The notes under the pieces are model-generated. The model searched no databases, had not been told where the DNA came from, and saw nothing but the letters and a program-made list of their open reading frames with translations. A DNA stretch of 61,770 bases, taken from positions 1 to 61,770 of IMG/VR virus record IMGVR_UViG_3300035438_000760, one strand, 5' to 3'. Origin of the DNA: a virus. Its lineage: Duplodnaviria > Caudoviricetes. Below, in pieces: positions 1,859 to 60,267 of the stretch (its first letter is position 1; every line of letters begins with the position of its first letter). The position numbers and the translations under genes are program-made.

Positions 1859-1920
1859 GGTTTTGTTACTGTGGTGATGCGAATACCACTATTGGGGTAG
1901 CGTTCACTGCGGAGGTAACG

Positions 1921-2184
1921 ATGAGCGAACTTTTGAAGAAGTTGAATCAGGCTGGGACTACAAAAATTTCTCGGTGTGGTGTTGCTTTGTTGAAAGCAAG
2001 TTTGGATCCTGCTGAGTGGGATCAGGTTGCTGTCATTATTGACGGGATGCGAAACGATCGTTTGCGGGCTACGGCTCAAGGGCATACGGCTGTTTGGTTG
2101 TCTGGTGTTCTTAAAGAGCATGGGCATTCGGTTTCTCTTCATACGGTTCAACGACATATACGGAAGGCGTGTGCTTGTGAGTGA
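1921..2184 (+). CDS. Hypothetical protein, possible HTH with Cys/His residues
   Basis: GGAGG RBS before ATG; overlaps the next gene. Confidence 0.55.
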   Translation: MSELLKKLNQAGTTKISRCGVALLKASLDPAEWDQVAVIIDGMRNDRLRATAQGHTAVWLSGVLKEHGHSVSLHTVQRHIRKACACE

Positions 2185-3343
2185 TCTTTCTGAGGCGTTA
2201 ACTAATCCGCCGAAGCCGATGCGAGAGCGTCTTGGTGCTTTGGCTGAGTTGTTGGAGCGGTCTGGTATTGATATTGATGAGATTGGCAATGTCCAACGGG
2301 TCAATGTGTATCAGGGGTTCTATAAGGATGAGAACGGTGAAGCGCACACGGTTGACATGCATGGCATCGTGTTGTCGCCTAAGTGGGGCGACGCTCCTGA
2401 ATATCCTGTGGTTCAGCCTGCCGCGCCTACGGTGGTTCGCCCTGTCAAGATCCAGTCCAGTAAGCGGACTAGCAAGTTGACGGTCATTTTGCCTGATCCC
2501 CAGATTGGTTACCGCCGTCTGGATTCTGGTGAGATGTTGACGATGCATGATGAGGATGCGATAGATGTGGCGTTGCAGATTTGTCGTTCTGTCCGTCCAG
2601 ATGCCATCGTGAACTTGGGTGACTTCTTGGATCTCCCAGAGTGGTCTTCTAAGTTTTTGGTTTTGCCAGAGTTTGTGTTGACGACTCAGCCTTCGGTTGA
2701 TCGTGCCCACCTATTTTTGGCTCAACAGAGGGCTATTGCTCCTGATGCGACGATCAGTTTGTTGGCTGGTAACCATGATGATCGGCTGGGGAAGCATGTG
2801 GCTAAGAACGCTATGGCGGCTTTGCGGTTGCGTAGGGCTGGTTTGCCGAATGAGTTGCCTGTGTTGTCGCTTCAGTATTTGTTGCGGTTGGAGGAGTTGG
2901 GTGTGTCGTATGTGTCTGGGTATCCCGCTGGTCGGATCCAGATTGCTAAAGGCGGATATGGTCAAACCCCCCTATATGCCATTCATGGGGAGAAACTGGA
3001 CATCTCTAAGGTTGCTCGTGAGGAACGCCAATCGTTCGTTCAGGGGCACATTCACCGTCAAGCAATGCATGCGATGACCTATGAGGTTCGGGGTGAGCCG
3101 GAGACAGTTTTGGCTTTCTCGCCGGGTTGTCTGTGTCGGATTGATGGTGGTGTTCCCAGCACCAAGTCGGCTGTTGACGAGAGGGGTGTTCCTGTGGTCA
3201 GATGGGAAGCATGGCAACAAGGAATAGCGGTCGTGGAGGAATGCGACGATGGGTTTTATCATGTGGAAATTGTTCCTATTTTTCATGGGCGGGCTGTCTA
3301 CAGAGGGAAGCAGTATGAGGCTCGTAAAGATTCTGTGGGATGA
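2177..3343 (+). CDS. Calcineurin-like metallophosphoesterase
   Basis: DPQ, NLGD, GNHD, HG and GHIH motifs; likely GTG start at 2177. Confidence 0.85.
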   Translation: MSDLSEALTNPPKPMRERLGALAELLERSGIDIDEIGNVQRVNVYQGFYKDENGEAHTVDMHGIVLSPKWGDAPEYPVVQPAAPTVVRPVKIQSSKRTSKLTVILPDPQIGYRRLDSGEMLTMHDEDAIDVALQICRSVRPDAIVNLGDFLDLPEWSSKFLVLPEFVLTTQPSVDRAHLFLAQQRAIAPDATISLLAGNHDDRLGKHVAKNAMAALRLRRAGLPNELPVLSLQYLLRLEELGVSYVSGYPAGRIQIAKGGYGQTPLYAIHGEKLDISKVAREERQSFVQGHIHRQAMHAMTYEVRGEPETVLAFSPGCLCRIDGGVPSTKSAVDERGVPVVRWEAWQQGIAVVEECDDGFYHVEIVPIFHGRAVYRGKQYEARKDSVG

Positions 3344-3548
3344 CGCTTATTCGTTGCCTGATGATTGGCACGAGTTGCCGTTGGCTCCGCCTGAGACTCG
3401 TCCTATGACGACTGTTGGGTTCATTGTTTCTGAGTCTAAGTGGGGTGTGGCTGTTGCTCATACGCATGATCCCGATGGTGAGACTTGTGCTGGTGTGATT
3501 GTGATTCCTAAAGGGATGATCCGTAAGATCACTGATTTAGTTGCGTGA
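3315..3548 (+). CDS. Small phage protein (WxDA...TVGF type)
   Basis: MRLVKILWDDA...TVGFIV...VIPKGMIRKI pattern. Confidence 0.6.
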   Translation: MRLVKILWDDAYSLPDDWHELPLAPPETRPMTTVGFIVSESKWGVAVAHTHDPDGETCAGVIVIPKGMIRKITDLVA

Positions 3549-3678
3549 CTATTACTGTTGGGAATGCGATCTTGATTGGCGGGGTAGTAAGCATTGTCCT
3601 GTGTGTGGTGGTTTGGGTGAGGAACAGGATGACTTCCCACTAAACACCGTTCAAGACGATGTTGACTAGCATACGGTT

Positions 3679-4365
3679 GTGGATTTTGACCTGACTGAGT
3701 TAGAGAAGAAGATGTCGCCGTCTGAGGCGGGTCGTTACGCCGCTGAGATGCGATGGCGTACTCATTCTGGTATGGCTTTGCCCGCTGGTGCAAACACTGT
3801 TTTGTTGCCTGACCGTTTGAATCGTGCTACTGACAACATGTTGGCTAAGGGTGGCAGTGTTTCTCACTTGGGTTTGAACGAGAGCGATGCTGTTTTGCGT
3901 GGTGCGATGATGATGGTGGAGCGCACTTTTAGTGAGGCTCGTATGAATCAGCGGGATTACGAGTTGAATGTGCATGCTCAGAAGTCGTGGCAGGAGGCTC
4001 GTAAGGATCCTTCGGCGATGCTTCATGTGGTTCGTGTTGGTCGCAATATTGCGGCGGTTGCGGTTACGGTTCGTCCGAATGATGCGACGGTGGAGATTCG
4101 GCATTTGAGTTCTACTGGGGTGTTGAAGGGTGCTGGTTCGGCTTTGTTGGGGTCAATTATTAAGAAGGGTGTGAAGGGTGGGCGTACTACTTTTCGGGTT
4201 ACGCCGTCTGAGGAATCTAAGTCTTTTTGGGATGAGTATGGTTTTAGCGGTGCTGTTTATGACCAGTTGGGTAATCCTGATGGGTCGCAGGATTTGGTTG
4301 TGAAGCCTGAGTGGTTGCGTGTTGTAAAGGCTAATTTTGATTCTTCAACGGAAGGTACAGAGTGA
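3679..4365 (+). CDS. Tagged cargo protein with C-terminal GNAT acetyltransferase-like domain
   Basis: EKKMSPSEAGRYAAEMRW tag; KGAGSALL acetyl-CoA motif A and SFWDEYGF motif B. Confidence 0.65.
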   Translation: MDFDLTELEKKMSPSEAGRYAAEMRWRTHSGMALPAGANTVLLPDRLNRATDNMLAKGGSVSHLGLNESDAVLRGAMMMVERTFSEARMNQRDYELNVHAQKSWQEARKDPSAMLHVVRVGRNIAAVAVTVRPNDATVEIRHLSSTGVLKGAGSALLGSIIKKGVKGGRTTFRVTPSEESKSFWDEYGFSGAVYDQLGNPDGSQDLVVKPEWLRVVKANFDSSTEGTE

Positions 4366-5492
4366 ACAAGTCATTGGAAAATGTGTTGAAGGCTTTGGAG
4401 CAGGACGCTTTGGCGTTTTGTTCGGAGTCGGATTGGGCGATCGTTGTCGCTGAATGCGAGAGGGCTGGGAATGTTCGTCGTGTTTCTAAGTCGGCTCAGG
4501 TGATTTTGGAGAAGGCTATGTCTCGTTCTGAGGCTGGTCGGTTTGCGGCTGAACAGCGTTGGAAGAATCATGTGAAGGAGGGTGATGGTAGCGGAGGGAG
4601 AATTCCCAATCCGCCCGGGTCGTCGGTTCGTGGCACAAGATCTGCTTTTAAGACTCCAGAATCTAAGGCTAATGCTAAAAAAATGATGCGAGACGCATTG
4701 TTATACGGTGGGTATAACGGTATAGAAGTTGCTGAAATTTTGACTGGCAGAGGAAATAACATTGCCAAAAAACAAAGTCGCAGGTGGTTGAAGTTGTATG
4801 GCTTTACGGACGGTCAAATACGAGAGTTTGTTGGCAGAGACACCGTTGAAACAAGTGGCAGTGGAACTCCTAAAGAGAAATACTCGCCAGTGCAATACCA
4901 AGCGGTTCGGGATGCGATACCTCAAATCAGTGCGGACAATGCTAAGAAGTTGACTCAGTATCTTGCTGATAATGATCTTCTTGGTGGTACTGCTGGGATG
5001 ACTCCTCAGCAGATGCTTGATAAGTGGGTGCCTCATTTGGATCGTGCTTTGGGTGGTAGCGAGACTGCAACTCCTAAAACGGCACCAGTAAAAAGTGGTG
5101 GTGAACGGGGTTCGGGTTCGTTTGATGATGGAACACCTTTTCATGGTAAGTTTTCAAGCCCGACAAACAATGACGGCGAAGGCGACGGCACTTTAGGTAC
5201 CAGCCGTGTTAACCATCCTGTTTACAAAACACCGAAGTATAAGGCTGAAGTGAAAGCGGCGGCTCTGTACCAGTTGCATAACGAGATCGTAAAAATGCAT
5301 CGGCAGGCAGGCAAACAAATTCCAAATTCTGCCAAGCCTTACATGGATGCTCTAAATTCGTTGTCAAATGTCAACGAAATGTACGGCATGGACTCTGGCA
5401 AATCCATTGTTGCTTACACCATTAGCAATATTAAATTTTTTGGTGAGCAAGGCAAAGCGTTAAAAGCGGAGTTGTCCGCTCGGTTGAAATAA
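4362..5492 (+). CDS. Tagged multi-domain cargo protein, unknown function
   Basis: Shared ~50-aa leader plus EKAMSRSEAGRFAAEQRWKNH; several domains separated by low-complexity linkers. Confidence 0.7.
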   Translation: MNKSLENVLKALEQDALAFCSESDWAIVVAECERAGNVRRVSKSAQVILEKAMSRSEAGRFAAEQRWKNHVKEGDGSGGRIPNPPGSSVRGTRSAFKTPESKANAKKMMRDALLYGGYNGIEVAEILTGRGNNIAKKQSRRWLKLYGFTDGQIREFVGRDTVETSGSGTPKEKYSPVQYQAVRDAIPQISADNAKKLTQYLADNDLLGGTAGMTPQQMLDKWVPHLDRALGGSETATPKTAPVKSGGERGSGSFDDGTPFHGKFSSPTNNDGEGDGTLGTSRVNHPVYKTPKYKAEVKAAALYQLHNEIVKMHRQAGKQIPNSAKPYMDALNSLSNVNEMYGMDSGKSIVAYTISNIKFFGEQGKALKAELSARLK

Positions 5493-5520: not shown

Positions 5521-6462
5521 ATGCGACAAGGTTTGGAATCAGTTTTAAAAATGTTGGAGCCGTTTGCTCTCGGATTTTGTTCCGATAGTGAGTGGTCTGA
5601 TGTGGTTGCTGAGTGCGAATATGTTGGTGGTGTTTCTGGTGTGTCGGTTTCGGCTCAAAGGATTTTGGCTAAGGCGGAGTTTGGTTCTCGTTCGGAGGCT
5701 GGTCGTTATGCGGCATTACAGCGTTGGAAGACCCATATCCCTGTTGACGATGTAATCACCGCTTACCCTAATGCGAAACCTGCTGTGGCTGTTGGGGAAC
5801 CGTTCCCTCCTCCTCCTACGCCAGATACTGAACCTGATCCTAAGTATGGTGAGGAAAGCATTCGTCTGGCTAGAGAACTTCGTGCCAAATCGGTGCTTCT
5901 TGAACCTGAAGTTACAAACATGATTTTGGCGGTTGCTCAAAAGACTGGTGCCGAAACGCCTGACCTTAAACATCGTTTGAAGGCAACAGGTAGTCTTGCT
6001 CGCAAGATCCATAATGAGGGTATGGCTGAACATGACGGTGATTTTGTTAAGTCTGCTGAGGGTATCTCAGATGCGATTCGTTACACAATGGTGATTGATG
6101 ATGATAACTATTTGGGTGCGGCTCAGCAGATTATTAAGGATTTTGAGTCCAGTGGATACAAGATTCGTAACAAAAACTTTTGGCAGACGGGCGATCCTTT
6201 TGATGCGATGACTTTAAAGTTGTCTAAGGACGGGGTTACTACTGAGTTGCAGATGTTGACTCCTGCGGCGAAGAAAGCCAAGGAACTGAATCATCCGTTG
6301 TATGAGATTTATCGTGATCCTTCTACACCGATGCTCACTCGGATGAGTGCTTGGAAAAAAATGGTTGATGTAGCCAAGTTAACGCCTCGTCCGTTAGGCT
6401 ATTCCTTATTGTTAACACTTGGAACTTTGGTTCTTCAAAAACCTGATTGGGCGTTGATGTGA
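5521..6462 (+). CDS. Tagged cargo protein with RelA/SpoT-like nucleotidyltransferase domain
   Basis: AKAEFGSRSEAGRYAALQRW tag; RLK..SL.RK, DAIRYT, ELQ and H.LYE.YR motifs. Confidence 0.7.
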   Translation: MRQGLESVLKMLEPFALGFCSDSEWSDVVAECEYVGGVSGVSVSAQRILAKAEFGSRSEAGRYAALQRWKTHIPVDDVITAYPNAKPAVAVGEPFPPPPTPDTEPDPKYGEESIRLARELRAKSVLLEPEVTNMILAVAQKTGAETPDLKHRLKATGSLARKIHNEGMAEHDGDFVKSAEGISDAIRYTMVIDDDNYLGAAQQIIKDFESSGYKIRNKNFWQTGDPFDAMTLKLSKDGVTTELQMLTPAAKKAKELNHPLYEIYRDPSTPMLTRMSAWKKMVDVAKLTPRPLGYSLLLTLGTLVLQKPDWALM

Positions 6463-6726: not shown

Positions 6727-7386
6727 ATGGCAGACATGATGAAAGACTATGTGGAGGTTGCGGAGCGTATCCGTATCTTCCGTGAGAAGTACCCAGAGGG
6801 TTCGTTGCAACCAATGAATCTGGAGAAGCCTTACGAGATTGTGACGGTCGGGGAGAAGACTTTCATTGTCTATTTTGCCGCCGCTTACCGTACTCCCGAC
6901 GATCAGCGACCCGGCATTGGCAGTGCATGGGAGCCGGTTCCCGGTGCTACCAGTTTTACACGCCTGTCCGAACTGATGGTGTGTGAAACCTCGGCTTGGG
7001 GACGCGCAATTGTTGCTGTTTTGGCGGCGGATGCGAAAAAGGTTGCCACGATTGATGAGGTTCGGAATCGTGCGGAGGCTCCTGTTCGTGCAGTTGCACC
7101 AAAGCCAATTGCTAAGGTTGTCGCTCCTAAGCCGTCTGCTGATGAGCCACAGGAATGGGTTGCACCTAAGCAGGTGATCGTTGAACAAACGGAAAAGAAT
7201 GAGGCAAGCATCCATGCTATCGCTGAGTTGGCGAAGCAGGCGGGCATCGCTTCCAAAGAGGAAATGCGGGAGTATTGCTCAATGGTGATTGACCGTGACA
7301 TTGCTTCGTCGTTGGATTTGTCGGCTGAGGATCGGGTGAAAGTCATCATGGCTCTTCGTGAACTGGTCATGGATCCCAAAGAGTGA
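6727..7386 (+). CDS. Putative ssDNA-annealing protein (Rad52/Sak-like)
   Basis: DYVEVAERI...ETSAWGRA pattern; sits upstream of replication genes. Confidence 0.55.
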   Translation: MADMMKDYVEVAERIRIFREKYPEGSLQPMNLEKPYEIVTVGEKTFIVYFAAAYRTPDDQRPGIGSAWEPVPGATSFTRLSELMVCETSAWGRAIVAVLAADAKKVATIDEVRNRAEAPVRAVAPKPIAKVVAPKPSADEPQEWVAPKQVIVEQTEKNEASIHAIAELAKQAGIASKEEMREYCSMVIDRDIASSLDLSAEDRVKVIMALRELVMDPKE

Positions 7387-8126
7387 GTATCAGGGTCATG
7401 TCATCCATTTGGGAACTTGACCTGCCACCATCTGAGAAGTTAGTTCTTTTGGTCATTGCGGATCATGCCGATGATGATGGTGGGAACGCGTACCCTAGCG
7501 TGGCTCGGATTGCTCGTCGGGCTTCTATTTCTGAGCGTCAAACTCAACGGGTGATCCGTCAGTTATGCGATGACGGGTTTCTGATTGTGGAGGATCGTTT
7601 GGGTGGTGGTGTGGATTGGCGGAGTGATCGTCGCCCTAATCGGTATCAGATTATCGGGGTGTCATCAGCGTCATCTCGTGGTGGTCACGGGGTGACATCT
7701 GTGCGTCACGAGGTGACACTGGGGGGCTCACGAGGTGACATACAGGGCACTCACGAGGTGACACCCATGTCACCCTATACATCCATAGAACCATCCATAG
7801 AACCATCCATAGAAATATCTTGTGCAGAATCGCTTTGTGAGTTGTTAGCGGACTCGTGGGCTTCGTTGAGTTCTGGTGTGAAAAGACCGAAGGTGACGAA
7901 GGCGTGGGTTGATGAGATGGATCGGATGATGCGACTTGATGGTCGTGATGCTGGTTTGGTTGAGGAGGTTTTGAGGTGGTTGCCGTCTGACAGTTTTTGG
8001 TCGGTGAATGTTGGGTCGCCTGTGAAGTTGAGGAAGCATTTTGATCGGTTGATTTTGCAGATGCGAAAGACTGATCGCAGTAGTCGGTTTTCTGGTATTG
8101 AGGAATTTCTTAAGGAGGAATTGTGA
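7383..8126 (+). CDS. Phage replication initiator with N-terminal wHTH
   Basis: EKLVLLVIADHADD...YPSVARIAR N-terminus; internal iteron-like repeats; followed by a helicase loader. Confidence 0.8.
   Translation: MSIRVMSSIWELDLPPSEKLVLLVIADHADDDGGNAYPSVARIARRASISERQTQRVIRQLCDDGFLIVEDRLGGGVDWRSDRRPNRYQIIGVSSASSRGGHGVTSVRHEVTLGGSRGDIQGTHEVTPMSPYTSIEPSIEPSIEISCAESLCELLADSWASLSSGVKRPKVTKAWVDEMDRMMRLDGRDAGLVEEVLRWLPSDSFWSVNVGSPVKLRKHFDRLILQMRKTDRSSRFSGIEEFLKEEL
7685..7813 (+). repeat. Iteron-like repeats (probable replication origin)
   Basis: TCACG(A/G)GGTGACA at 7685, 7706, 7728 and 7751; inverted TGTCAC at 7768; ATCCATAGAA x3 at 7781-7813. Confidence 0.7.
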
Positions 8127-8587
8127 TTAGGACTGAGACGGCAAGCATTGTGGGTGTGTTGGTGGCTGGTTTTCCGAGTGTGAAGATGAGTCGGGAAACG
8201 GTTGAGGTTTGGCATCGTGCTTTGCATGATTTGCCGTTTGAGGATGTGAAGGTTGCTGTTGAGAAGTTGTTGATGACTTCTGAGTGGTTCCCGACGATTG
8301 CTTTGATTCGTAAAGCGACTTTGGATGCGATGGGCATGTTGCCTATGTCGGCGGATGAGGCTTGGGTTGAGATTCTGGGTGCTATCAACGATCATGGTTA
8401 CGCTGGTTACCCCGAATTTTCGCCTCTCGTGCGTGAGGCGGTGTTGCAGGTGGGTTGGCGTGATATTTGCATGTCAACGCAACCTGAGGCGATTAGGAGG
8501 TCTTTCGTGAAGGCGTATGATGCGATTGCTTTGAAGCAGACCCATTTGGTTTTGACTGCACCACTGGAGTTGACAATGGGGGGATAG
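8123..8587 (+). CDS. Replicative helicase loader/inhibitor (G39P-like)
   Basis: VEVWHRALHDLPF...WFPTIALIR...ADEAW pattern; coupled to the initiator. Confidence 0.75.
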   Translation: MIRTETASIVGVLVAGFPSVKMSRETVEVWHRALHDLPFEDVKVAVEKLLMTSEWFPTIALIRKATLDAMGMLPMSADEAWVEILGAINDHGYAGYPEFSPLVREAVLQVGWRDICMSTQPEAIRRSFVKAYDAIALKQTHLVLTAPLELTMGG

Positions 8588-11241: not shown

Positions 11242-11571
11242 ATGACCAAAACGAAAGCACAGATAGTTCGGGAACATCCCCGATATTTTTCAAAAGCCAA
11301 CAATAAATTCTTTGGCTCAAAAATTGAGTATGTCGGTGTTGCTGATGTGAATGGTGACGACTGGTTTGTCACGAGCGAGTACGACAAGTACGGGGCAACG
11401 GGATACAAGCGTTTGTTTTCAGTTCGCCGAGCCAACGCCAACAAGCCCAGCGAAGTTGAAACAGTTGGAAAGTTTTGTGGCTACGACAATCTGCACGATG
11501 CGATCACCGCATTGACAAAAAGTGTGGTTGAAGTTGCTGTCACGCAAATTATCGGCGGGGTTCCACAATGA
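11242..11571 (+). CDS. Hypothetical phage protein
   Basis: AGGAGG RBS; YFS...FFGSKI...FVTSE pattern. Confidence 0.6.
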   Translation: MTKTKAQIVREHPRYFSKANNKFFGSKIEYVGVADVNGDDWFVTSEYDKYGATGYKRLFSVRRANANKPSEVETVGKFCGYDNLHDAITALTKSVVEVAVTQIIGGVPQ

Positions 11572-11870
11572 GTGCAATGAGAAATTTCGTGAAAGGGATG
11601 GGGCATTGCATTGCTCGTGTGAATCATCCCGATGGCACTAGCCGCGTGTATGGTCCTTTTATTTCTGGTGAGTGGTGCCTCCGATGGATGGATCACCAGT
11701 ATGAGGAGGGTTTCACTCGCGGGTTTATTGTTGAGCCATTGCGAACGCCTGATCGGGAGCGGGATTATTCGGCATGGTGGAATCCTGAATCAATTATGAC
11801 CGACGATCATTTCAAGGCTGAGTTTGTGAACTGGGGAAAAGAATCTTTGGAAATGTTCCCTTTGACTTGA
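11568..11870 (+). CDS. Hypothetical protein
   Basis: ATGA-coupled ORF; its stop lies inside the promoter repeat. Confidence 0.55.
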   Translation: MSAMRNFVKGMGHCIARVNHPDGTSRVYGPFISGEWCLRWMDHQYEEGFTRGFIVEPLRTPDRERDYSAWWNPESIMTDDHFKAEFVNWGKESLEMFPLT

Positions 11871-11919
11871 CTGGGGTTTAGTTTTCTGTAAGAATACTTA
11901 TGGAGGGAGAGAGGCTCCC
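11864..11919 (+). promoter_or_regulatory. Repeated promoter plus GGGAG-AGAGG-CTCCC hairpin
   Basis: GACTTGACTGGGGTTTAGTTTTCTGTAAGAAT; the same hairpin follows the 23754 copy. Confidence 0.7.
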
Positions 11920-11936
11920 GCCAGAGAGGGGAAAAG

Positions 11937-12839
11937 ATGACACGCTCATTCACCGCCGACTTATCCAAGTCGGCTCGTCGGGCACACCGTTCCCGCCAGC
12001 AAGCCAAACTGGATGCCAACCGAACGCTGAGCAAGCGGACATTCGGCATTGAGATTGAGTATGTGGGGACTCCGCTCAAGCGTCAAGTAGCCGAAGCCCT
12101 GAGCCTTGCTCTCGGCGAACATGTCCATGTCACGGGCTACCACTCCAACACCTGCTACACCTGCGGTCGCCAAGATGTTGGCTACGGTCAATGGAAAGTT
12201 TGCCATGACGGTTCGCTTGGCGGTCGGGGCTACGGTGCCGACTCCACCACTGGCGAGATTGTCTCTCCTGTCCTAACGGGCGAAGAGGGAATTGACAAAG
12301 TGAAAATCGTACTGGCAACACTCCGAGCGGTCGGTGCGAAAGCCTCCGCCAAGTGCGGGATCCACATCCACGCTGGTGCTAAAGACCTAACCGCCAACGG
12401 ACTACAGCGACTGGTCAAGAACTACGGTCAAGTGCAGGACGAGATCTACACTTGGCTCCCCAGTCGCCGAGCGTCGGGTGTCTACTCACCAAAACTGCGG
12501 ACTCGGAGTCTTGACAGTCTCTACCTCGGAGTCAAGCAATTCAAAGAGCAGGGATACGCTGGAGAACTTGGCTCTAAGTACGCTGGCTTGAACATCAGCC
12601 CGCTCGCCCGAATCGGAACTGTGGAATTCCGCATGCACCAAGGTTCAGTGGATACCAACATCCTCGCTCCTTGGATCCGATTTGTCCTCGGCTTCGTAGA
12701 TAGCCAAGTGGATGACGAGAACTTGGTAGGCACCACGATTCCCACTAACGAATCGGTCTTGACCTACTTAGTTGACGGGAAGTACCTACCCGCCAAGAGT
12801 GCCGAAAAAATTGCCCAGCGTGTCGGTCGCTGGAACTAA
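11937..12839 (+). CDS. Putative amidoligase (COOH-NH2 ligase family)
   Basis: FGIEIE, HDGSL, EIVSPVL, CGIHIH and TVEFR motifs. Confidence 0.85.
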   Translation: MTRSFTADLSKSARRAHRSRQQAKLDANRTLSKRTFGIEIEYVGTPLKRQVAEALSLALGEHVHVTGYHSNTCYTCGRQDVGYGQWKVCHDGSLGGRGYGADSTTGEIVSPVLTGEEGIDKVKIVLATLRAVGAKASAKCGIHIHAGAKDLTANGLQRLVKNYGQVQDEIYTWLPSRRASGVYSPKLRTRSLDSLYLGVKQFKEQGYAGELGSKYAGLNISPLARIGTVEFRMHQGSVDTNILAPWIRFVLGFVDSQVDDENLVGTTIPTNESVLTYLVDGKYLPAKSAEKIAQRVGRWN

Positions 12840-12856
12840 CAGGAGGGAAACAGAAC

Positions 12857-13618
12857 ATGTGCGGAATCTCAGGATTCAGTCTCACCAAGTGCGACGCTAA
12901 GAAAGTTGACAGCAGGATCCTTGCTAGTTGTCTTCTAAAAAACATTGAGCATCGTGGGCGACATGCCACGGGTGCCTCATGGACAGAGACAATGGATGAG
13001 GGTCTGATGTGGTGGTACAGCAAGGCTCCGATCCCAGCATCGGAATTTGACGGTCACCTAGAACAAATGCCAAAGCACACTCGCCGAGCATTGCTCCATG
13101 TACGGTACGCCACCACTGGCGATCCCGAAGATGAGAACAACAACCATCCGATCATCGTGCCATCGTCATCGGGCGGATCGGTCATCGGTGTTCACAACGG
13201 GATCATCAACAACTACCAGCAGATCATGGATGACATTGGTGCCGAATGGATTGGCGAAGTGGACTCTCAAGCCCTTTTCCACCTTGCGGGTACTGAAGAC
13301 TTCACCAAAGAAAAGTTTCGCCAAGTTCAGGGTTCAGCAGCGGTTGCTTATGTTGACACTGCCGAACCGACAACGATCAAACTGGTTCGTATGTCAATGC
13401 GACCCTTGTGGATTGCCCAGACTGAAGACGGCTCAACACTTTGGTCATCAGAGGAAGATGCACTGCTGGATGCCATGAGTGTGGTAGGACTTACAGCAGA
13501 TTTTGTTATGGAGGTTCCCGAATGGACAATGGTTACTATCAACGATGCTCGTCTAGATTCCGTAGAGCAGATTGTTCGCCCTACAGCATTGAGTGGTCAG
13601 ATGGTCATGTTTCGGTAG
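12857..13618 (+). CDS. Class II glutamine amidotransferase (Ntn)
   Basis: MCGI N-terminus, HRG, HVRYAT, NNHP, HNGII and VDS motifs. Confidence 0.9.
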   Translation: MCGISGFSLTKCDAKKVDSRILASCLLKNIEHRGRHATGASWTETMDEGLMWWYSKAPIPASEFDGHLEQMPKHTRRALLHVRYATTGDPEDENNNHPIIVPSSSGGSVIGVHNGIINNYQQIMDDIGAEWIGEVDSQALFHLAGTEDFTKEKFRQVQGSAAVAYVDTAEPTTIKLVRMSMRPLWIAQTEDGSTLWSSEEDALLDAMSVVGLTADFVMEVPEWTMVTINDARLDSVEQIVRPTALSGQMVMFR

Positions 13619-13801: not shown

Positions 13802-14263
13802 ATGTTGGATGACTTTTGGGATTCTGCCGTTTGCAAAACGGAGCAAGTCCCGATAGGAATCTTTTTTGGATCTGAAGATGAAAGCCCGCCAGAGCGGACA
13901 CTTAGAATCGCTATGGCTAAATCTATTTGCCAACGATGCGATGTCATTGACGAGTGTTTGCAGATGGCGATCGCAAATGATGAGCGGGGAATCTGGGGAG
14001 GGAAAACCGAGAACGAGCGGTATCGGGGTTCTACCGTCCTAATTTCGGATCCGATGGTACCTGTAGTGCCCGTAGAGCCTGTCGCCAGATCAATTTGGGT
14101 AACCATAGCCGACTCTAATGGGGTAGTGCTACAGATGACTAGGAGGTTCACTCCGATGACATGGCAAATCGTGGTGGACGGCATTGTTCGCTACGAAAAG
14201 TATGTAGAAGGCGAAGCGTGGATCGTTTGGAACAGGGCAGTTGAAAGCAGGATGCGATACTGA
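13802..14263 (+). CDS. whiB: WhiB-family transcription factor with C-terminal extension
   Basis: C...CQRC...C plus GIWGG. Confidence 0.85.
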   Translation: MLDDFWDSAVCKTEQVPIGIFFGSEDESPPERTLRIAMAKSICQRCDVIDECLQMAIANDERGIWGGKTENERYRGSTVLISDPMVPVVPVEPVARSIWVTIADSNGVVLQMTRRFTPMTWQIVVDGIVRYEKYVEGEAWIVWNRAVESRMRY

Positions 14264-15567: not shown

Positions 15568-15757
15568 CAATTTTGTTGAGAGGGGTTTAAATGGAGACAG
15601 TTAAGACAGCAGTTGCCGAATTAAATGACCGACAAATTTTGGTCATGTTTTTTGAAGACGGAACTTTGCACATTGCTGAACGAGAGAATTCGTGGGACAC
15701 ATGGGGTCGCCCTGTGTACACGCAATTTGCAACAATGGGCGAAAGCACAAAACACTG

Positions 15758-18609: not shown

Positions 18610-18815
18610 TGCATTTTTTTGAGGTGGATGACCAGAACGGTGATCTGGTTGATCTGATTCCGTTTTGTTCTGATTGGTGTCATCGCAGTTGGTGTTTGTC
18701 TGGCGGTGGTGTCTATGGTGGTTGGAATGGTGCGCGTGAAGTTGAGTATTCAACGGTGTGTGCGTGGTGTCAAGAAAAAATTGTGGGTTACGGAGATCTT
18801 GAGGAGGATCAGTGA
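18609..18815 (+). CDS. Small Cys-rich hypothetical protein
   Basis: FCSDWC and CAWC; coupled on both sides. Confidence 0.5.
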   Translation: MHFFEVDDQNGDLVDLIPFCSDWCHRSWCLSGGGVYGGWNGAREVEYSTVCAWCQEKIVGYGDLEEDQ

Positions 18816-19294
18816 GCGATATTGATGTGGAGATGGTTGAACAGTTCGTGCAGTTAGTTGTTGCGGATCGGTCGTGGATGGAAAGGGCATCGTGTCGTGG
18901 GGTTGACCCGAATTTGTTTCATTCAGAGTTTGGTGACTTTGGTACACAAAAAGATGCTTTGTTGATCTGTAACGGGGTGAAGGCGACTCGGAAAACTCTC
19001 GGTGTTAGTCCGTGCCCAGTTCGGGATCAGTGTTTGGAGTATGTAATGTCTTTACCTGCCCGTACTGATACTCACGGGGTGTATGGCGGGACTACTCATA
19101 AACAGCGGGTGGGTTTGAGGCGTTCTCGTGGGATAACGAAGAGTAAGCCTCGGTCACCTTGTGGTACTCAGGCGGGGTATCGGTCGCATTTGCGGTTTAA
19201 CGAAAAAACTTGTGATGAATGTCGGAAAGCCAATGCTCTTCACAAAATGTTGTTATTAGAATCCAAGAATGCCCGAAATGCCGTTTCAGCCTAA
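18812..19294 (+). CDS. whiB: WhiB-family transcription factor with C-terminal Zn-binding extension
   Basis: WMERASCRG...C...CPVRDQC, GVYGG; CGT..GY..H...CDEC tail. Confidence 0.85.
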   Translation: MSDIDVEMVEQFVQLVVADRSWMERASCRGVDPNLFHSEFGDFGTQKDALLICNGVKATRKTLGVSPCPVRDQCLEYVMSLPARTDTHGVYGGTTHKQRVGLRRSRGITKSKPRSPCGTQAGYRSHLRFNEKTCDECRKANALHKMLLLESKNARNAVSA

Positions 19295-26190: not shown

Positions 26191-26208
26191 GGAAGTCAGC
26201 GGGTTCAG

Positions 26209-26236: not shown

Positions 26237-26285
26237 GTTGCTTAAATACGGTTCAGCACTACTGGGGTATGGTGAGCGGATGGTT

Positions 26286-49435: not shown

Positions 49436-52400
49436 ATGGCTATAACCGTTGACGCTGTACTTGGTGCTGATGTATCTGGCTTTGTCTCAGGAATGGGGCA
49501 GGCTCAACAGGCGTTCTCAAATACTGCTAAAACAATCACTAATGGCACCAATGCGATGGGGTCTAGTCTCCAGAATACGACCAACGCCAGTAACGCTTTT
49601 TCTGAAGCGGCAGTCAAAATGGGTGTCGCTATTGGTGCGGCAGGGTTGGCGTTAGTTAGTTTTAGCCGTAAGTCATTCGCGGTGGCGGCAGATGTTGCCG
49701 AAATGAATGTGGCGATGGAGGCTGTTGGCAAGTCGTCGGGTGTTGGTGGTAAAGCGTTGACGGATGCCGCAACGGCTGTTCGTAAACAGGGTATTGAGAT
49801 GAAGGCATCTCAAGAGATCGCTTTGCTTTTTGTGAAGTCAAACCTTGATTTGGCGGATGCGAGCAAGTTGGCTCGTGTTGCTCAAGACTTTGCCGTGTTG
49901 TCGCAACGAAACTCAACTGATGTCGCTAAAACGCTTGCTTACGCTATTCAGACTGGTAACAGTATGTTGCTTAAGGGTGTGGGTATCACTAAGTACGCTG
50001 GTGAAGCGTATTCGGAGTATGCAACCACTTTGGGCAAGTCGTCTAACAACTTGACTAACTCGGAACGCCAACAAGCGATCTTGAACATGGTTATGGCTGA
50101 GGGAGCCAAGGTTGCTGGTACTTATGAAGCCGCAATGACTGAATCTGGCAAGGTGCTTCGTTCGTTCCCTCGTATTATCAATGACATTCAGTTGGAGTTC
50201 GGCAACCTGTTTTTGGATGGTTTTGGTCCTGTTATTTTGTCGGCGTATTCAACTTTAAAGCAGTTCTCTTTGATGATTCGTGAGGGTGGTGCTTTGCATC
50301 CGATCATCACTGCTTTGACACAATCGTTTACGACTTTGATTTCGCCATTAGAAGGTGTTTTTAAAAACATGAAGCATGCGATGGAAATGTTCCAGACAGG
50401 CAATGTTGATATTAAGGCTGTTTCGGATCGGATAACCGAGTTACTTCCAATGATTACTGCCTTGTCTGTCGGTTTAGGTGCGTTTGCAGGAAAAAAGATT
50501 CTTGGTGATCTTCCAGTTTTTGGAAAACTTTTAGACTCAATGACAAAAAGTATTAGTCCATTAGGGCTTGGTATAGCGACACTTATTTTGATGTCGCCAG
50601 AACTTCGTGCCGTCTTTATGGATCTGTTAAAGAGTTTGGAACCTTTATTGCCCGTGGTCATGGATCTTGGCAAAACCATTATGGATTCCATGAGTCAAGT
50701 AATGACAGCAATCGCCGATGTTGCTCAAGGCACCGAAGGTTCAATAGTTTCCATTCTGACTGGAATGATCAATGCGATCTCAGCAATCAGTGTTGTCGTT
50801 TTGCCTACTGTTAACGGGTTAGCGTCGCTGTTAACTGTTTTGACTGGCAACAAAGTAGCGATGGCGGCGTTGTTGCCGATCATTATGGCTTTTGTTGTTC
50901 AAAAGAAGTTGATGGGTCTTAATGCTGACGGTTCGGCTAAATCTTTGCAACGATTGGTCACGGGCTTCAAAACTTTTGGTGCAAACATACAAGAAAACAT
51001 TAGATATCAAAAGGCTTTAGCACAAGGCAATGGTCTAACAATCACTTCGTTCCAAGCATTAAGGGCGGCGGGTGTCACCACTTTTGTGGCGTTGAAGACA
51101 AGTGTGCAAGCATTTATGACTTCAATTTTACCAATGCTCGCCCTGATGGTTGCTATTCAACTTGTGTTTGCGGCAATCGGTGCGTTTGGTGCTAAACAAA
51201 AAGAGAACGCCGCTCGTACTAAAGAGATGAGTGAGGCTTTGCGTGACAACACGAAAGCGTTGCTTGAAAACAAAGAGGCTCTCCTTGAGGGTGCCGATGG
51301 TTCCGAACTTTTGTCGGACGCTATTTTTAAAACTGGTGAGGATAGTGCAAAACTTGTTAAGGCTTTTGGTCAAATTGGCGAGGTAGCAAGTTTAGATAAA
51401 TTTGCTTCGGCTCACGACAATTTTAAGCAGTTCGCTACAGAAATTTTGATGGCTCATGGTGCTACTGAAAAAGCCGCAAAGTCAATGGCAAGTTATATCA
51501 ACAGTACAGATGATAACGATTTTGCTAATACCCGTTGGCTTGCTATTGAAACTTCTGGTTCTTTTATTGGTGTTGCTAAAGCGTTGGAAGAAATTCAAGA
51601 CCAGATTGAAAAAACTGATTTCACAAAGATGGTTCAGGATCAAGTTGACATGATGATGGGTTCTGGTCAGATCACTACGGGGATGCGACGAGAGGCTCAG
51701 GCTTTGGCTGATGCTGAAGCAGAAATGAACGGTTACGGCGAAGCCGCTAAGGCGGCGGCTTTTGAAAATCATTTGATGGCTCTTGCTACTGATTATGCTC
51801 GGCGAATGCTTAACGGCGAAAGCGAGGCTGTTGAAATAGGTATCAGGCTTCACGGCGAGTTGATGATGAATAAGCGTGAACTGAACAAGTTGAATAAAGA
51901 AGAGCGGGTTGTTGTCAAGTCGTTAACTGAAGCATATTTAGAGTTGCAGGTTGCTAATGGCGGTAATGCTGTTGCGTTAGATGACTATGCGAAGACTGTT
52001 CAGGGTTCGTATCGTGACACGATCTTGTTGTTTAGGGCGAACAGGTCGTTGGCTGGTTCTATTAAGTCGGCTACTGACGAAATTTTGTCGGGTAAGCAAA
52101 CTTGGGATGATTTTAAGAACAGTGCGTATGACATTGGTGATGCGATATTGACTTACAACAAGAATTTGATTGACCAGAAGTTGCCGTTGGATGAGGTTGC
52201 TTCTAAAACTGCTGAGTTTGTTCAGAATATGATTGGTGCTGGTGTTCAGGCTGGTTGGAGTAAGGAAGCGATCAAAGAAGTTGTTGACGCTATGAATTTG
52301 GTGAATGGCACTACGGCTCATCTGTATTTTGATTTGTCGTCGGCTCAGGCGGCGTTGGATACTTTGGCGGCTGTTTATTCGGCGGTCTATCTGATTAGCG

Positions 52401-53845
52401 GTGACGAGGCTGGCATGAAAAAGATGACTGATGCAATGGCTGAGGCTCAGAACGCTGTAAACAGTTTCAATAACAAGAAAGTCAACCCGAAAGGTGGCGG
52501 TGGCGGTTCTAAGAAGGAAGATCCGTTTGCGTGGGTTAAGGGTTGGGTTGACAATCTTGTGTCGTATGCGAACACTGAGATTTCTAGTTCTGCTCTTGCC
52601 GATCTTTTAGGTTTGAATCCTGAGAAGTCCACTGGTGACAAAGTTCGTGGTGTGTTTAAGGATTTGAATGATGAGGCTAAGAAGTTGGGTCTTCAGAACA
52701 TTCCTGCGGTTGCTCAAGCGTTGGAAAAATTGGGTCAGAAGTATGAAGAGTTGGCGAAGATGGCTGAGGCTCGTGATCTTTTGGGCGGTCGTATTGAGGA
52801 AACGAAAACAAAAATTGGTGAGTTGGAGTCATTAGTTTCTGGTTTGGCTGACACTTTGAAGAGCCTTCAGGAAGAGGCTGGCGGTATTGCTGAGGGTTAC
52901 GGTCTGGATATTGTTGGTGCTATTTTGCCGACGAATGGGGCTTTGGAGCAGGCTCGTGCGGCGTTGACTGAGTATCAGCGGTTGGTTGACGAGCGCAACA
53001 CGATCATTCAGAACGCTAAAGACTATGCGATACAAGTAGCGACGAGCATGATGCCTCCGTTGAGTGAATCCAATACGGTTGCTCGTGCTTCAAAGGTTCT
53101 TCGTCAGGCTAAAGAGTTCCGTGACGGCATTATGGAGATGCGAGATCGTGGTTTCCCGAAGGACATGATCGCCGAAGTTATTGGTGCGGGTGTTGTTCAG
53201 GGTGGCAAGTTGGCTCGTGGTTTGTTGGCTATGTCGGCTGGCGATTTGTCTGAGTTGGTTGGTATTCGTTCCCAGATTGCGGATGTGGCTGTTGATACGG
53301 CTACTGCGGCGACGAACATCATGTTTGATCCTGCTCAGATTGAAGCCATGAATACTGCTATTGCTACGCAGGGTCAACTTGTGACGGATCTTTGGAGCGG
53401 TGTTATTGCTACGGCTCAGACGGCGTTAGTAGATGCTCAAACTGAGTTGGCTAATCAAAACACTTTGTTGGCTGATTTGAACACGCAGTTGGCGGATGCG
53501 AACACTGCTATCGCTCGGTTAATTAGTGCTATTCAGGTTGAGTTCCATGATGCCATGTTTGAATTTCTGGCTGGGTTCAATGGTGCTATTGATCGTCTTG
53601 GGACACCTAGTTTGGCTGGTGTAACTCCGTTTGCTAGTGGCGGCATCGTGACTATGCCAACAATTGGTCTGGTGGGCGAGGCTGGGGCTGAGGCAATAAT
53701 TCCTTTGTCGCAATTGGGTTCTATGGGGACAACGAATGTGTATGTGACTGTGCAGGGAACGGTTACTAGCGAAAAGAATCTTGTTGAAACAGTTCGTATT
53801 GGTTTGTTAAAGGCTCAGAAATCTGGAAGAGCGGTAACGATATGA
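49436..53845 (+). CDS. Tape measure protein
   Basis: 1469 aa, Ala-rich helical with hydrophobic segments; FASGGIV...GEAGAEAIIPL near the C-terminus. Confidence 0.92.
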   Translation: MAITVDAVLGADVSGFVSGMGQAQQAFSNTAKTITNGTNAMGSSLQNTTNASNAFSEAAVKMGVAIGAAGLALVSFSRKSFAVAADVAEMNVAMEAVGKSSGVGGKALTDAATAVRKQGIEMKASQEIALLFVKSNLDLADASKLARVAQDFAVLSQRNSTDVAKTLAYAIQTGNSMLLKGVGITKYAGEAYSEYATTLGKSSNNLTNSERQQAILNMVMAEGAKVAGTYEAAMTESGKVLRSFPRIINDIQLEFGNLFLDGFGPVILSAYSTLKQFSLMIREGGALHPIITALTQSFTTLISPLEGVFKNMKHAMEMFQTGNVDIKAVSDRITELLPMITALSVGLGAFAGKKILGDLPVFGKLLDSMTKSISPLGLGIATLILMSPELRAVFMDLLKSLEPLLPVVMDLGKTIMDSMSQVMTAIADVAQGTEGSIVSILTGMINAISAISVVVLPTVNGLASLLTVLTGNKVAMAALLPIIMAFVVQKKLMGLNADGSAKSLQRLVTGFKTFGANIQENIRYQKALAQGNGLTITSFQALRAAGVTTFVALKTSVQAFMTSILPMLALMVAIQLVFAAIGAFGAKQKENAARTKEMSEALRDNTKALLENKEALLEGADGSELLSDAIFKTGEDSAKLVKAFGQIGEVASLDKFASAHDNFKQFATEILMAHGATEKAAKSMASYINSTDDNDFANTRWLAIETSGSFIGVAKALEEIQDQIEKTDFTKMVQDQVDMMMGSGQITTGMRREAQALADAEAEMNGYGEAAKAAAFENHLMALATDYARRMLNGESEAVEIGIRLHGELMMNKRELNKLNKEERVVVKSLTEAYLELQVANGGNAVALDDYAKTVQGSYRDTILLFRANRSLAGSIKSATDEILSGKQTWDDFKNSAYDIGDAILTYNKNLIDQKLPLDEVASKTAEFVQNMIGAGVQAGWSKEAIKEVVDAMNLVNGTTAHLYFDLSSAQAALDTLAAVYSAVYLISGDEAGMKKMTDAMAEAQNAVNSFNNKKVNPKGGGGGSKKEDPFAWVKGWVDNLVSYANTEISSSALADLLGLNPEKSTGDKVRGVFKDLNDEAKKLGLQNIPAVAQALEKLGQKYEELAKMAEARDLLGGRIEETKTKIGELESLVSGLADTLKSLQEEAGGIAEGYGLDIVGAILPTNGALEQARAALTEYQRLVDERNTIIQNAKDYAIQVATSMMPPLSESNTVARASKVLRQAKEFRDGIMEMRDRGFPKDMIAEVIGAGVVQGGKLARGLLAMSAGDLSELVGIRSQIADVAVDTATAATNIMFDPAQIEAMNTAIATQGQLVTDLWSGVIATAQTALVDAQTELANQNTLLADLNTQLADANTAIARLISAIQVEFHDAMFEFLAGFNGAIDRLGTPSLAGVTPFASGGIVTMPTIGLVGEAGAEAIIPLSQLGSMGTTNVYVTVQGTVTSEKNLVETVRIGLLKAQKSGRAVTI

Positions 53846-58281: not shown

Positions 58282-58343
58282 GGACAAAACATGGCAAACG
58301 ATTTTAAAACAACAATGACTCAACAAGATTTGGGGATTAACTG

Positions 58344-58817
58344 ATGTCTATCAATCCGAATACATTGTTTTTAGCCGGGCAGGTTTTAACTTCTGACCAA
58401 GCGAACCGTTTTCCTCGTGGGGTGATGGCGTTTGCGTCATCGCCGACTAACTACACATTGACTGCCAGCGACGCACTAGCGACGGGCATGACTGTTACAT
58501 GGTCAGCAGTCGCTGACCGTTACTACCGAATCACCTACTACGAACCTCTTGTTTCAACTCCCGCAGTATCAGGAGGAGTAACAAACCTCAGAATCAAAGA
58601 CGGGGCAACCACCCTCCAATACGGATCAATCAGAACTAACAGCGCAACTTTTACTCAAGGGAATGTGAATGTCGTACTGATTGCTACATGGGCGACTTCA
58701 GCAACACGAACTCTCACGGGGCAAGTATCAGTAAGTTCTACCACTGGCACACCGTTACTTAATCGCGCGTCGGCTTATCCAGCGTTCATGCTTGTGGAAG
58801 ATATCGGTCCTGCCTAA
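58344..58817 (+). CDS. Minor tail protein
   Basis: F.AGQVLT..Q.N N-terminus; VEDIGPA end. Confidence 0.6.
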   Translation: MSINPNTLFLAGQVLTSDQANRFPRGVMAFASSPTNYTLTASDALATGMTVTWSAVADRYYRITYYEPLVSTPAVSGGVTNLRIKDGATTLQYGSIRTNSATFTQGNVNVVLIATWATSATRTLTGQVSVSSTTGTPLLNRASAYPAFMLVEDIGPA

Positions 58818-60016
58818 TGTCTGCTACACCTTCGTTCGGTCAGGGTACTCCTGTTACTTCAAGGGCACTTAATGCTACTTTCGCTACTTTGTTGACTGGT
58901 GATTATGACTTTTCTAACATCAATGCGACAGGAACAATAAATGCAGGTGGATTGATTACTAGCACGACTGGTTTTTCTGGTTCTGGTGCAAGCCTTACAT
59001 CGTTGAACGCAACGAACTTGTCTAGTGGAACTGTTGCCTCGGATCGTCTTCCATCAGTCAACATTGGTACTACCTCTGTCGCTTTGAGTCGGGCGAGTGG
59101 CGCATTGACTCTCGCTGGTATCACACTCACATCACCTACTTTTACTGCACCCGTTCTTGGTACACCAGCGAGCGGTGCGTTGACTAACTGCACCCTCATT
59201 CCTGCTGGACAATTAACGGGAACTACGCTCAACGCTGGAGTCACTGCCTCATCGCTAACAAGTGTCGGAACTTTGACAGGGTTGACAAGTTCGGGAACTG
59301 TTGAAGCGTCGCTCGGTGCTTTGGGAACGACTGCTACTAACTCGCTTATCCATTTCAAGTTGACATCAACGACGAACAACAACGACTTCTTGTTACTCAC
59401 AGCGAACAGACTTGCCAATGGTACAACTTGGGACTCAGCGGCTTACACGATACAGCGTCTCGTTGATGCGACATACATGGGGTTCATTCGTTTCGGTGAT
59501 GGTGCTAGCGGTCAGAATGTACAGATCGGTGTCAACGCTACAAAGTATCTCGCCGTTTCTTCTACAGCAACGAATGTGACTGGGCTTTTAACAGCAGATA
59601 ATATTTGGAATACTTCAACAGCAACTACGACTTTGACTGGTTTCCAGTATGTTGTGCGCTCTACTGGTGCGTTCCCTGCTTACAATCATTTCACATCAAT
59701 GCGAGAAGGCAAACGCAATATCGTAACCATTGCAGATAGTGGCACATTGATTGACCAACTCAATCCTGTTACATATCAAGCGAAGATTGACGAAACTGAT
59801 GACGAGATTTCTGCTGGGTGGAAAGACCGTGATCTTGAGTACGGTTTCATTGCTGAAGAAGTAGCAGAAGTTGGCACAGGTTTTCTTGCTCAGTACATGG
59901 ATGATGGAGAAGGCAATTTGAAACCAGCAGGGTGGAAGTGGCAAGGGGTAGTATCTGTTTTAGTAGCAGAAGTACAAAGTGTTCGTAAACGACTAGAGGA
60001 GTTGGAAAAAGTATGA
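58817..60016 (+). CDS. Tail fibre with C-terminal intramolecular chaperone (peptidase S74-like)
   Basis: SSLTSVGTLT repeat; TSMREGKRNI...LNPVTY...YGFIAEEV...coiled-coil end. Confidence 0.8.
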   Translation: MSATPSFGQGTPVTSRALNATFATLLTGDYDFSNINATGTINAGGLITSTTGFSGSGASLTSLNATNLSSGTVASDRLPSVNIGTTSVALSRASGALTLAGITLTSPTFTAPVLGTPASGALTNCTLIPAGQLTGTTLNAGVTASSLTSVGTLTGLTSSGTVEASLGALGTTATNSLIHFKLTSTTNNNDFLLLTANRLANGTTWDSAAYTIQRLVDATYMGFIRFGDGASGQNVQIGVNATKYLAVSSTATNVTGLLTADNIWNTSTATTTLTGFQYVVRSTGAFPAYNHFTSMREGKRNIVTIADSGTLIDQLNPVTYQAKIDETDDEISAGWKDRDLEYGFIAEEVAEVGTGFLAQYMDDGEGNLKPAGWKWQGVVSVLVAEVQSVRKRLEELEKV

Positions 60017-60147
60017 ACGAGCAACCACAAGTGGATGCACAAAAAGTGATTGATGATCTTTTGGATCAGTTGAAGCAAGCGAATTTGCAGATGGCTATTT
60101 TGCGGGTGATGTTGAGTGACGCTAACTCAACTCCTTCAGACGACTAA
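60013..60147 (+). CDS. Small coiled-coil protein (not in the ORF track)
   Basis: ATGA-coupled 44-aa ORF MNEQPQVDAQKVIDDLLDQL... Confidence 0.5.
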   Translation: MNEQPQVDAQKVIDDLLDQLKQANLQMAILRVMLSDANSTPSDD

Positions 60148-60267
60148 ACGGTTGTTGATATCAGATTTGATAACAATCACGCTTTAGTCAGATGCGATAG
60201 CAGTTAACCAACCGACCTTTATCGGGGTTGGTATGTGATTGCTATGGTTGTAGTTGGAGTCTGACAA

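Follow-up and report, generated by a model that had tools for sequence, protein, structure and literature searches.

A one-strand hexamer array in a freshwater actinophage genome switches together with a repeated peptide tag

The IMG/VR record IMGVR_UViG_3300035438_000760, analysed here over its whole length of 61,770 bases (the window), is the complete 61.8-kb genome of a freshwater actinophage. Its + strand carries a real, positively selected, strand-oriented array of the hexamer ATGCGA, with 139 copies against 6 on the − strand. The sites are evenly spaced and are conserved in related phages, among which the word changes together with a short, arginine-rich peptide (pepA in the window) repeated on 8–12 proteins per genome. 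This peptide tag is the only feature that tracks word identity across lineages and over a wide range of G+C content (GC). We therefore favour, tentatively, a tag-and-docking-site system, in which the hexamers would be oriented docking sites for pepA-tagged phage proteins.

An oriented ATGCGA array under selection

The initial annotation of the window picked out the heptamer GATGCGA, estimated by eye at some 70 + strand copies with essentially none in the opposite orientation. Counting bears this out, with 75 copies on the + strand (all 11 example coordinates among them) and 0 on the − strand, against 8.9 ± 2.8 on both strands together in dinucleotide shuffles (maximum 18). The 139/6 distribution of ATGCGA, together with the low counts of its 18 single-substitution variants (each 0–29 copies on +), shows that the selected unit is the hexamer, shorter than GATGCGA. 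G is preferred as the base before the word (75/139) and disfavoured as the base after it (14/139).

1456-61028, + strand: ATGCGA array by word count, 139 sites, 75 of them GATGCGA; first site at 1456, last at 61023-61028
17865-39312, − strand: six copies of ATGCGA, at chance level (+ strand starts 17865, 19184, 21165, 26379, 37055 and 39307)

Shuffling synonymous codons within genes gives 44.8 ± 5.1 copies on the + strand (maximum 58), and shuffling codon order within genes gives 26.5 ± 4.2. For the − strand, codon-aware nulls give 8.0–10.6 copies (shuffle minimum 2–3), close to the 6 observed. The − count is thus ordinary and the + count three- to fivefold above the nulls, so that polarity arises by enrichment on +, not by depletion on −. 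The view of the initial annotation that this is a polar DNA signal and not a codon-pair effect is upheld, in that codon-aware nulls fall short (27–45 against 139) and the strands are unequal. Its remark that the motif occurs in all three frames and between genes also holds for the hexamer: 76 sites read xAT GCG A, 35 ATG CGA and 19 xxA TGC GA, and 9 are non-genic or at gene edges. Met-Arg pairs are written ATG CGA in 32 of 42 cases, although CGA makes up 17% of Arg codons; the word is likewise used in 76/133 [NDHY]-Ala-(A..) contexts and in 19/37 x-Cys-[DE] contexts. A six-letter word shapes more than half of the codon contexts able to hold it, which places it among the strongest non-coding constraints inside genes.

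The sites are spread more evenly than chance would have it. Mean spacing is 432 bp and minimum spacing 100 bp; none of the 138 gaps is shorter than 100 bp, against 27.6 expected (0/5000 simulations so low), and the gaps have a coefficient of variation of 0.78, where random placement gives 0.99 ± 0.08. Relatives space their sites alike: L007, L010, L011 and L022 have no ATGCGA gap below 100 bp, the complete relative G072 has one (21.5 expected), and G008, whose word is TGCTGA, has two (16.0 expected). No periodicity or helical phasing of the sites was found in five genomes (best Rayleigh z 7–9.6 over ~1240 periods). The stretches at ~19.5–22.6 and ~53.5–59.4 kb from which the motif had seemed missing do lack the heptamer, with a largest gap of 5970 bp that is only marginally unusual (P = 0.035), but they do not lack the hexamer, which is present at 19618, 21273, 21747, 54047, 56546, 56932, 57443 and 58923. 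The largest ATGCGA gap is 2499 bp, a length reached in 37% of random placements. Site density is 2.44/kb in genes shared with relatives and 1.60/kb in unique genes. The second-longest ATGCGA-free stretch (11498-13397) spans the amidoligase gene and the greater part of the gene for glutamine amidotransferase, and amidoligase is the sole shared gene of at least 600 bp without a site.

That polarity comes from enrichment bears on whether the array reflects evasion of a defence acting only on sites in inverted pairs (of Type III, Type ISP, MANTIS or BREX-like kind), or is the target of the phage's own C5 cytosine methylase (15692-16855). A 6-bp asymmetric site resembles the targets of such systems, and the phage avoids many palindromes. 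The abstract of a MANTIS preprint (10.64898/2026.09.23.753747) describes strand-biased depletion of such sites in virulent phages. Here the − strand is not depleted and the + strand is enriched. Escape and methylation alike fail to predict an excess of sites or their even spacing, and a methylase target leaves the polarity unexplained. Among relatives, G005 encodes a methylase homologue but lacks the word, and G004 lacks both. We regard this explanation as very improbable.

The array recurs in a subset of related phages. Among 80 loci fetched with the capsid protein, 16 have at least 1.2 ATGCGA/kb on the gene strand and the remaining 64 at most 0.84; among 40 terminase-anchored loci of at least 9 kb, the array is present in 4, and L116 has TGCTGA instead (51/1). 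Whole-contig ATGCGA counts (+/−) are 128/10 in G001, 63/10 in G002, 32/2 in G003, 70/3 in G006, 39/3 in G007 and 121/5 in G072 (61,480 bp, completeness 100). Polarity is lacking in G004 (96% complete; 14/17) and G005 (10/10), and G008, with a capsid protein 84% identical to that of the window, has TGCTGA at 97/2. Array density in relatives is 1.3–3.0/kb irrespective of GC, which ranges from 0.45 to 0.59; the same word over this range fits a phage-borne reader better than a host reader. Other related phages may have polar words of their own (CATTCG, 31/7, z 11, in L293; GAGTTC, 26/0 in L174 and 25/0 in L180; TGCTGA, 15/1 in L289), and one-strand C runs are seen in G005 (L100-L102) and L043 (CCCCCCC 16/0, CCCCCC 27/3).

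Individual sites are retained as well. At homologous positions, 16/42 window sites are kept in G002 and 14/44 in G001, against ~12% of other same-frame hexamers, so that conservation is about three times more frequent for ATGCGA; in G004 and G008, which lack the ATGCGA word, 1/16 and 0/10 are kept, in that order. This conservation places the sites under purifying selection, with turnover.

All convincing genes of the window lie on the + strand, and two inverted blocks in relatives separate genome strand from gene strand. A methylase pair in G001, inverted as judged by homology, has 4 ATGCGA in the genome + orientation against 2 in the sense orientation of the pair itself, and the single inverted gene of G008 has that phage's word twice on + and not at all on −; the word thus keeps to the genome strand, whichever way the local gene points. 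These blocks also bear on a reading at the RNA level, in which AUGCGA in + transcripts would be bound by the arginine-rich peptide or by another RNA reader. With all genes on +, every site is transcribed as sense RNA. The lambda N peptide binds boxB RNA, and pepA bears a general likeness to arginine-rich RNA-binding peptides. The two blocks nevertheless keep the word on genome + (6 against 2), although read-through + transcripts could still cover them, and Rfam at gathering scores gives 0 matches in the window. We consider an RNA reader distinctly improbable.

ATGCGA polarity does not switch anywhere round the circle, nor at the origin near 7.7 kb. This origin is lambda-like, lying within the initiator gene, with four 14-nt iterons TCACGAGGTGACA(C/T) at 7685-7764 (spacing 21–23 bp) and, downstream of them, three 12-bp tandem repeats CATCCATAGAAC at 7780-7819.

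7383-8126, + strand: O-like replication initiator (family scan)
8123-8587, + strand: helicase loader (family scan)

The sites could in principle be priming or helicase re-loading sites on a lagging- or displaced-strand template, tied to this initiator and loader. In a rolling circle running rightward, + would be the strand displaced, and full-length relatives of the initiator occur only in ATGCGA phages (7/7 loci). Pointing the other way, the iterons are not ATGCGA, no two sites are closer than 100 bp, there is no switch at the origin, and no primase or polymerase was found among the 43 of 89 rough open reading frame (ORF) calls of the window that our family scans covered. Moreover G008 (TGCTGA) and G004 (no word) have one replication module in common, for which reason we reject this module as the determinant of the word; the initiator as reader is rejected too, its iterons differing from ATGCGA, which is nowhere clustered. 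A role in replication is improbable. The primase site suggested in the initial annotation loses ground for the same reasons, a phage primase and a switch at the origin both being absent within that scope; host DnaG acting on a unidirectional rolling circle is a separate case.

A peptide that switches with the word

The lead to the peptide came from the type IB topoisomerase (TopIB) of the window, whose N-terminal part matched many unrelated ORFs. The matches define pepA, an arginine-rich peptide of ~20 residues with the consensus (E)KA(K/R)F(G/A)SRSEAGRYAAxxRW. Five ATGCGA genomes hold 38 copies (window 10, G001 8, G002 8, G003 6, G006 6). None was found in G004, G005, G008, G009 and G010, and G007, which is a 17-kb part of an ATGCGA phage, had none either. 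The carriers, about ten phage proteins in all, comprise TopIB, four proteins without a known function and three large ones whose genes follow that of the MuF-like head protein.

3682-3789, + strand: pepA tag (..MSPSEAGRYAAEMRW..) at the N terminus of ORF 3679-4365
4488-4595, + strand: pepA tag in ORF 4362-5492, closing a predicted three-helix N-terminal domain
5653-5760, + strand: pepA tag in ORF 5521-6462
26439-26546, + strand: pepA tag (residues ~94-122) in the N-terminal extension of the TopIB gene 26172-27332
27608-27715, + strand: pepA tag in ORF 27485-28516
34395-34502, + strand: pepA tag in large ORF 34266-35972, which follows the MuF-like head gene 33370-34269
36245-36352 and 36836-36943, + strand: two pepA tags in large ORF 35969-38350
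38623-38730 and 39655-39762, + strand: two pepA tags in large ORF 38335-40743, which holds a DUF3626 domain
41945-42052, + strand: degenerate pepA-like stretch (KAKFGSRVEAGKYAEHVRR) at the C terminus of the prohead serine protease 41186-42076

The tag falls in a predicted helix (H43-71), the third of a three-helix N-terminal domain modelled at a mean predicted local distance difference test score (pLDDT) of 69.5; a Foldseek search of this fold against the PDB gave no match at E ≤0.001. A pepA profile matched 344 representative proteins at E ≤0.001 among 1.84 billion, ranging from 63 to 1648 residues with up to five copies each, and a word-indexed protein search with the tag region returned 4 TopIB relatives and nothing else. 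The heptamer TGAGGCT (window 3316-52771) is present 14 times on + and 4 times on −, against 6.4 expected. Three of its + copies (4529, 39696 and 41986) are codons of Ser-Glu-Ala-Gly in the tag, which accounts for another 'polar word' noted in related phages.

When ORFs in all six frames were scanned with a profile, pepA turned up only in ATGCGA-rich sequences. We quantified the association over 124 non-redundant loci of at least 8 kb, taking an observed/expected ratio of at least 3 as enriched. ATGCGA is enriched in 10/13 pepA loci (median 5.0) and in 3/111 loci without pepA (median 1.0; Mann-Whitney p = 4e-7), and those three are partial pieces of ATGCGA phages from which the tagged genes are missing. 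Searching IMG/VR by pepA alone returned 18 loci, and 17/17 new ones are ATGCGA-polar at 1.1–3.9/kb. G008 has a different repeated peptide, pepB (GDYVGHPFRGNQW; KGDYVGHPFRGNQW.D), in 8 copies, which goes with TGCTGA: this word is enriched in 14/38 pepB loci and in 5/86 without pepB (p = 6e-4). Cross-controls in the same test (pepA with TGCTGA, pepB with ATGCGA) are null. The 65 loci fetched by pepB span a GC of 0.43–0.70 and show a mixed TGCTGA pattern; the word is polar on the gene strand in eight that share the G008 form of the peptide.

The two features also switch together within a single lineage. A tree of the capsid protein with 58 rows contains a clade of 16 (support 100/99) made up of 11 rows with ATGCGA and pepA (8 of these pieces include a tagged gene, and it is in these 8 that the tag is seen), 2 rows with TGCTGA and pepB, and 3 rows with neither word and a helix-turn-helix (HTH)-like repeated module. 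Word and peptide type thus change together twice within the clade. The module of the word-free clade (G004 = L093-L095; L012-L019) reads ..TWEEVA..GYANGGVARRAGKRH.. and is found in four proteins.

Other phage proteins were considered as the determinant of the word. Identities of the terminase subunits, portal, MuF protein, protease, scaffold-like protein and capsid do not sort with it, and these were set aside. TopIB was a further candidate. It is of poxvirus/Deinococcus type, matches Pfam Topoisom_I at 2.4e-17 and has as best solved relative 2f4q (1.1e-17), and Arg, Lys, Arg, Asn and Tyr catalytic positions appear aligned with those of the D. radiodurans enzyme. Poxvirus TopIB is site- and strand-specific, with targets of CCCTT type, and the hexamer might be a cleavage or nick site of the phage TopIB or of another nickase, giving one-strand interruptions like those of T5. 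The enzyme is present in the window and in G001, but the complete G072 carries the array without a PF01028 match, and G008, with its TGCTGA word, lacks TopIB as well. TopIB is accordingly rejected as the reader, and to the nick reading we give hardly any credence.

The peptide could instead be a capsid-targeting or processing signal only, the hexamer having another reader and the two travelling together by descent or host adaptation. Several observations suit this reading, namely the tag-like stretch at the prohead protease C terminus, the tags on large proteins whose genes come behind that of the MuF-like head protein, the wide distribution of pepB with a variable TGCTGA excess, and a G004 clade that has a repeated module and no DNA word. 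It is harder to reconcile with word and tag type switching together twice inside one 16-row clade, with conserved core proteins that do not track the word, and with null cross-controls. We think it unlikely.

Docking sites and a host signal weighed

Under the docking-site reading, each tag would dock on one hexamer and thereby place tagged proteins along phage nucleic acid. That the peptide is the reader, which nucleic-acid form it reads and what docking is for are parts of this reading that we infer. The single orientation would stem from a one-way step (packaging, ejection/entry or rolling-circle replication) or from + being read as a single strand; the translocase or ejection function named in the initial annotation could be such a directional, polarity-setting step. 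Gaps of 100 bp or more would leave room for bulky tagged proteins. It is possible, though doubtful, that the whole forms a two-part address system, in which a short helical tag common to some ten enzymes and packaged proteins is matched to 120–140 oriented, even hexamers in exchangeable pairs (pepA/ATGCGA and pepB/TGCTGA); cargo bearing the tag would then be placed on the nucleic acid of the phage alone, travelling with it or acting on it. Among the candidates that the initial annotation named, a protein-binding site is the one to gain support, through the co-switching of the word with a repeated, putatively binding peptide. The system, if so constituted, would be one not described before. No paper was found with 'ATGCGA' and 'phage' together, a broader literature search on strand-biased over-represented phage motifs gave nothing alike, and none of the peptide strings was found in any paper.

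Several points weigh against docking by the peptide. Co-occurrence may come from joint inheritance or joint host adaptation, and the word is also found alongside full-length relatives of the replication initiator. The HK97 protease has a capsid-targeting signal, and the degenerate tag on the prohead protease suggests such a signal rather than a DNA reader. A helix on duplex DNA is alone insufficient for one-strand polarity, and the pLDDT over the tag is only 57–69. The pepB–TGCTGA link is loose: TGCTGA is reversed in pepB loci L222, L223, L242, L260 and L275 (L223 has an antisense excess of 2/31 with its 14 ORFs of at least 180 residues all on +), is elevated on + and − alike in three others (L236, L237, L241), and shows no excess in many pepB loci having one or two peptides. 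Lastly, the G004 clade has repeated modules yet no DNA word.

A host reader is the other way to account for a short oriented word. On a Chi-like reading, the hexamer would be read by a host nuclease/helicase of RecBCD/AdnAB type, which gets onto a rolling-circle concatemer at its only free end, and would protect phage DNA. One orientation with no switch round the whole circle fits such a signal, as do the shortness of the word, which resembles known Chi sites, its variation among related phages (ATGCGA, TGCTGA, none), as hosts might vary, and the heavy nuclease pressure evident from extreme restriction-site avoidance. The only lead to the host is a capsid relative (67% identity) in a metagenome-assembled genome (MAG) titled 'Candidatus Nanopelagicales bacterium' (G011; one 5.4-kb contig). 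In 61/61 genomes sampled from the order of this MAG, ATGCGA occurs at 0.05–0.42/kb/strand, against ~0.24 at random and 2.25 in the phage, with the host itself inferred from that single contig. The word is moreover kept across phages of GC 0.45–0.59, which are unlikely to share a host, and near-absence of close pairs is not required of a Chi site. The array belongs with the phage and not with any host sampled; the Chi-like proposal of the initial annotation finds no support in these 61 candidate-host genomes, within the limit of a host inferred from one contig, and we hold it to be quite unlikely.

Should docking sites for a portable tag be the right reading, the array would represent a new way for a virus to distinguish its own DNA from that of its host and a new means to place enzymes and injected proteins on viral DNA, as well as a compact natural tag-and-site pair, possibly useful as a tool. 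Should the word instead be a Chi-like or nick signal, it would be the first entry point to signals of this type in freshwater Actinobacteria, a group abundant yet barely cultivated, and in the phages that infect them. Under either reading, the system is directly testable.

The phage genome and known polar words

The record length equals the window, and its final ~120 bases repeat the initial ~120 within a collagen-like GGTGCTACA repeat; the assembly is therefore circular or circularly permuted. A single gene crosses the record ends (60869-61770 + 1-884) and encodes collagen-like Gly-Ala-Thr repeats (GGTGCTACA, at least 11 copies) followed by a tail-fibre-like C-terminal part. Genes of the window, assigned by family scan except where stated, include the following.

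11937-13618, + strand: glutamine amidotransferase gene
13802-14263 and 18812-19294, + strand: two WhiB-like regulators
15692-16855, + strand: C5 cytosine methylase
19996-20475, + strand: small terminase
20804-22492, + strand: large terminase
26172-27332, + strand: type IB topoisomerase
31923-33401, + strand: portal
33370-34269, + strand: MuF-like head protein
41186-42076, + strand: prohead serine protease
43679-44629, + strand: major capsid protein
49436-53845, + strand: ORF of 1469 residues in the tail region (by position, no family assigned)

Family scans further identified SSB, a PD-(D/E)XK exonuclease, a ParB_N protein and an amidoligase. WhiB genes are a marker of an actinobacterial host. 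The phage is present in lake-water metagenomes, with at least half of its sampled words found in 11/24 listed runs, and no RNA data set is listed as containing the window. A DNA similarity search of 50,697 deposited phage records gave no match to the window, and a tRNA scan found 0 genes. Four 4-bp palindromes are absent from the window (TCGA 0 against 242 expected, ACGT 0 against 244, GGCC 0 against 172, AGCT 0 against 180), unlike GTAC, which is at a normal level (163). Several 6-bp palindromes without those cores are missing too, among them AGCGCT, AGTACT, CATATG, ACTAGT and CGTACG (0 against 8–11 expected), as is TTCGAA (0 against 24). Avoidance of restriction sites is extreme in this phage.

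Chi sites are words of the host, over-represented in its own genome. The phage array resembles Chi sites (RecBCD/AddAB) in being a short, asymmetric, over-represented and oriented word with a one-way reading process. It differs in having ~10 times random density, in avoiding gaps below 100 bp and in tracking a phage peptide, and the 61 candidate-host genomes are without ATGCGA excess. Strand bias of Type III target sites is known from T7 and EcoP15I. Such bias, like that of MANTIS sites, also concerns an asymmetric 6-bp word in one orientation, but arises (for MANTIS, going by the preprint abstract) through depletion of one orientation, whereas the phage array is enriched with the other orientation at chance.

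The polar, over-represented words that guide a DNA translocase, FtsK orienting polar sequences (KOPS) and SpoIIIE recognition sequences (SRS), and skewed 'architecture' oligomers are alike in kind. KOPS and SRS are 8-mers at about one per 10 kb that flip at the chromosome origin and terminus; the phage array has no flip and one site per 0.43 kb. On the protein side, capsid-targeting signals are known from the HK97 protease C terminus and from T4 (capsid-targeting sequence, CTS), and no targeting signal is known to be coupled to a genome-wide DNA word. Together with polyvalent packaged proteins (Iyer et al. 2017, PMC5512222), such signals share with pepA the use of short common peptides and of proteins encoded near MuF-like head genes, prohead protease included. 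The strings 'GNQ' and 'short motif' do not occur in PMC5512222, whose supplements may list short motifs of polyvalent proteins.

Stoperators share with the array many asymmetric sites over an actinophage genome in one orientation, and are bound by a phage protein. In mycobacteriophage L5 and cluster A they are 13 bp long, number ~24–30 per genome, lie mostly between genes and are bound by the repressor. An intergenic location of this kind is not seen here, where 9/139 sites are non-genic or at gene edges, and general family scans of the 43 ORFs, with no search aimed at either, found no repressor or integrase. The phage array differs from stoperators in its 6-bp word, its 139 copies, at least 130 of them within genes, and its candidate reader, a tag on about ten proteins.

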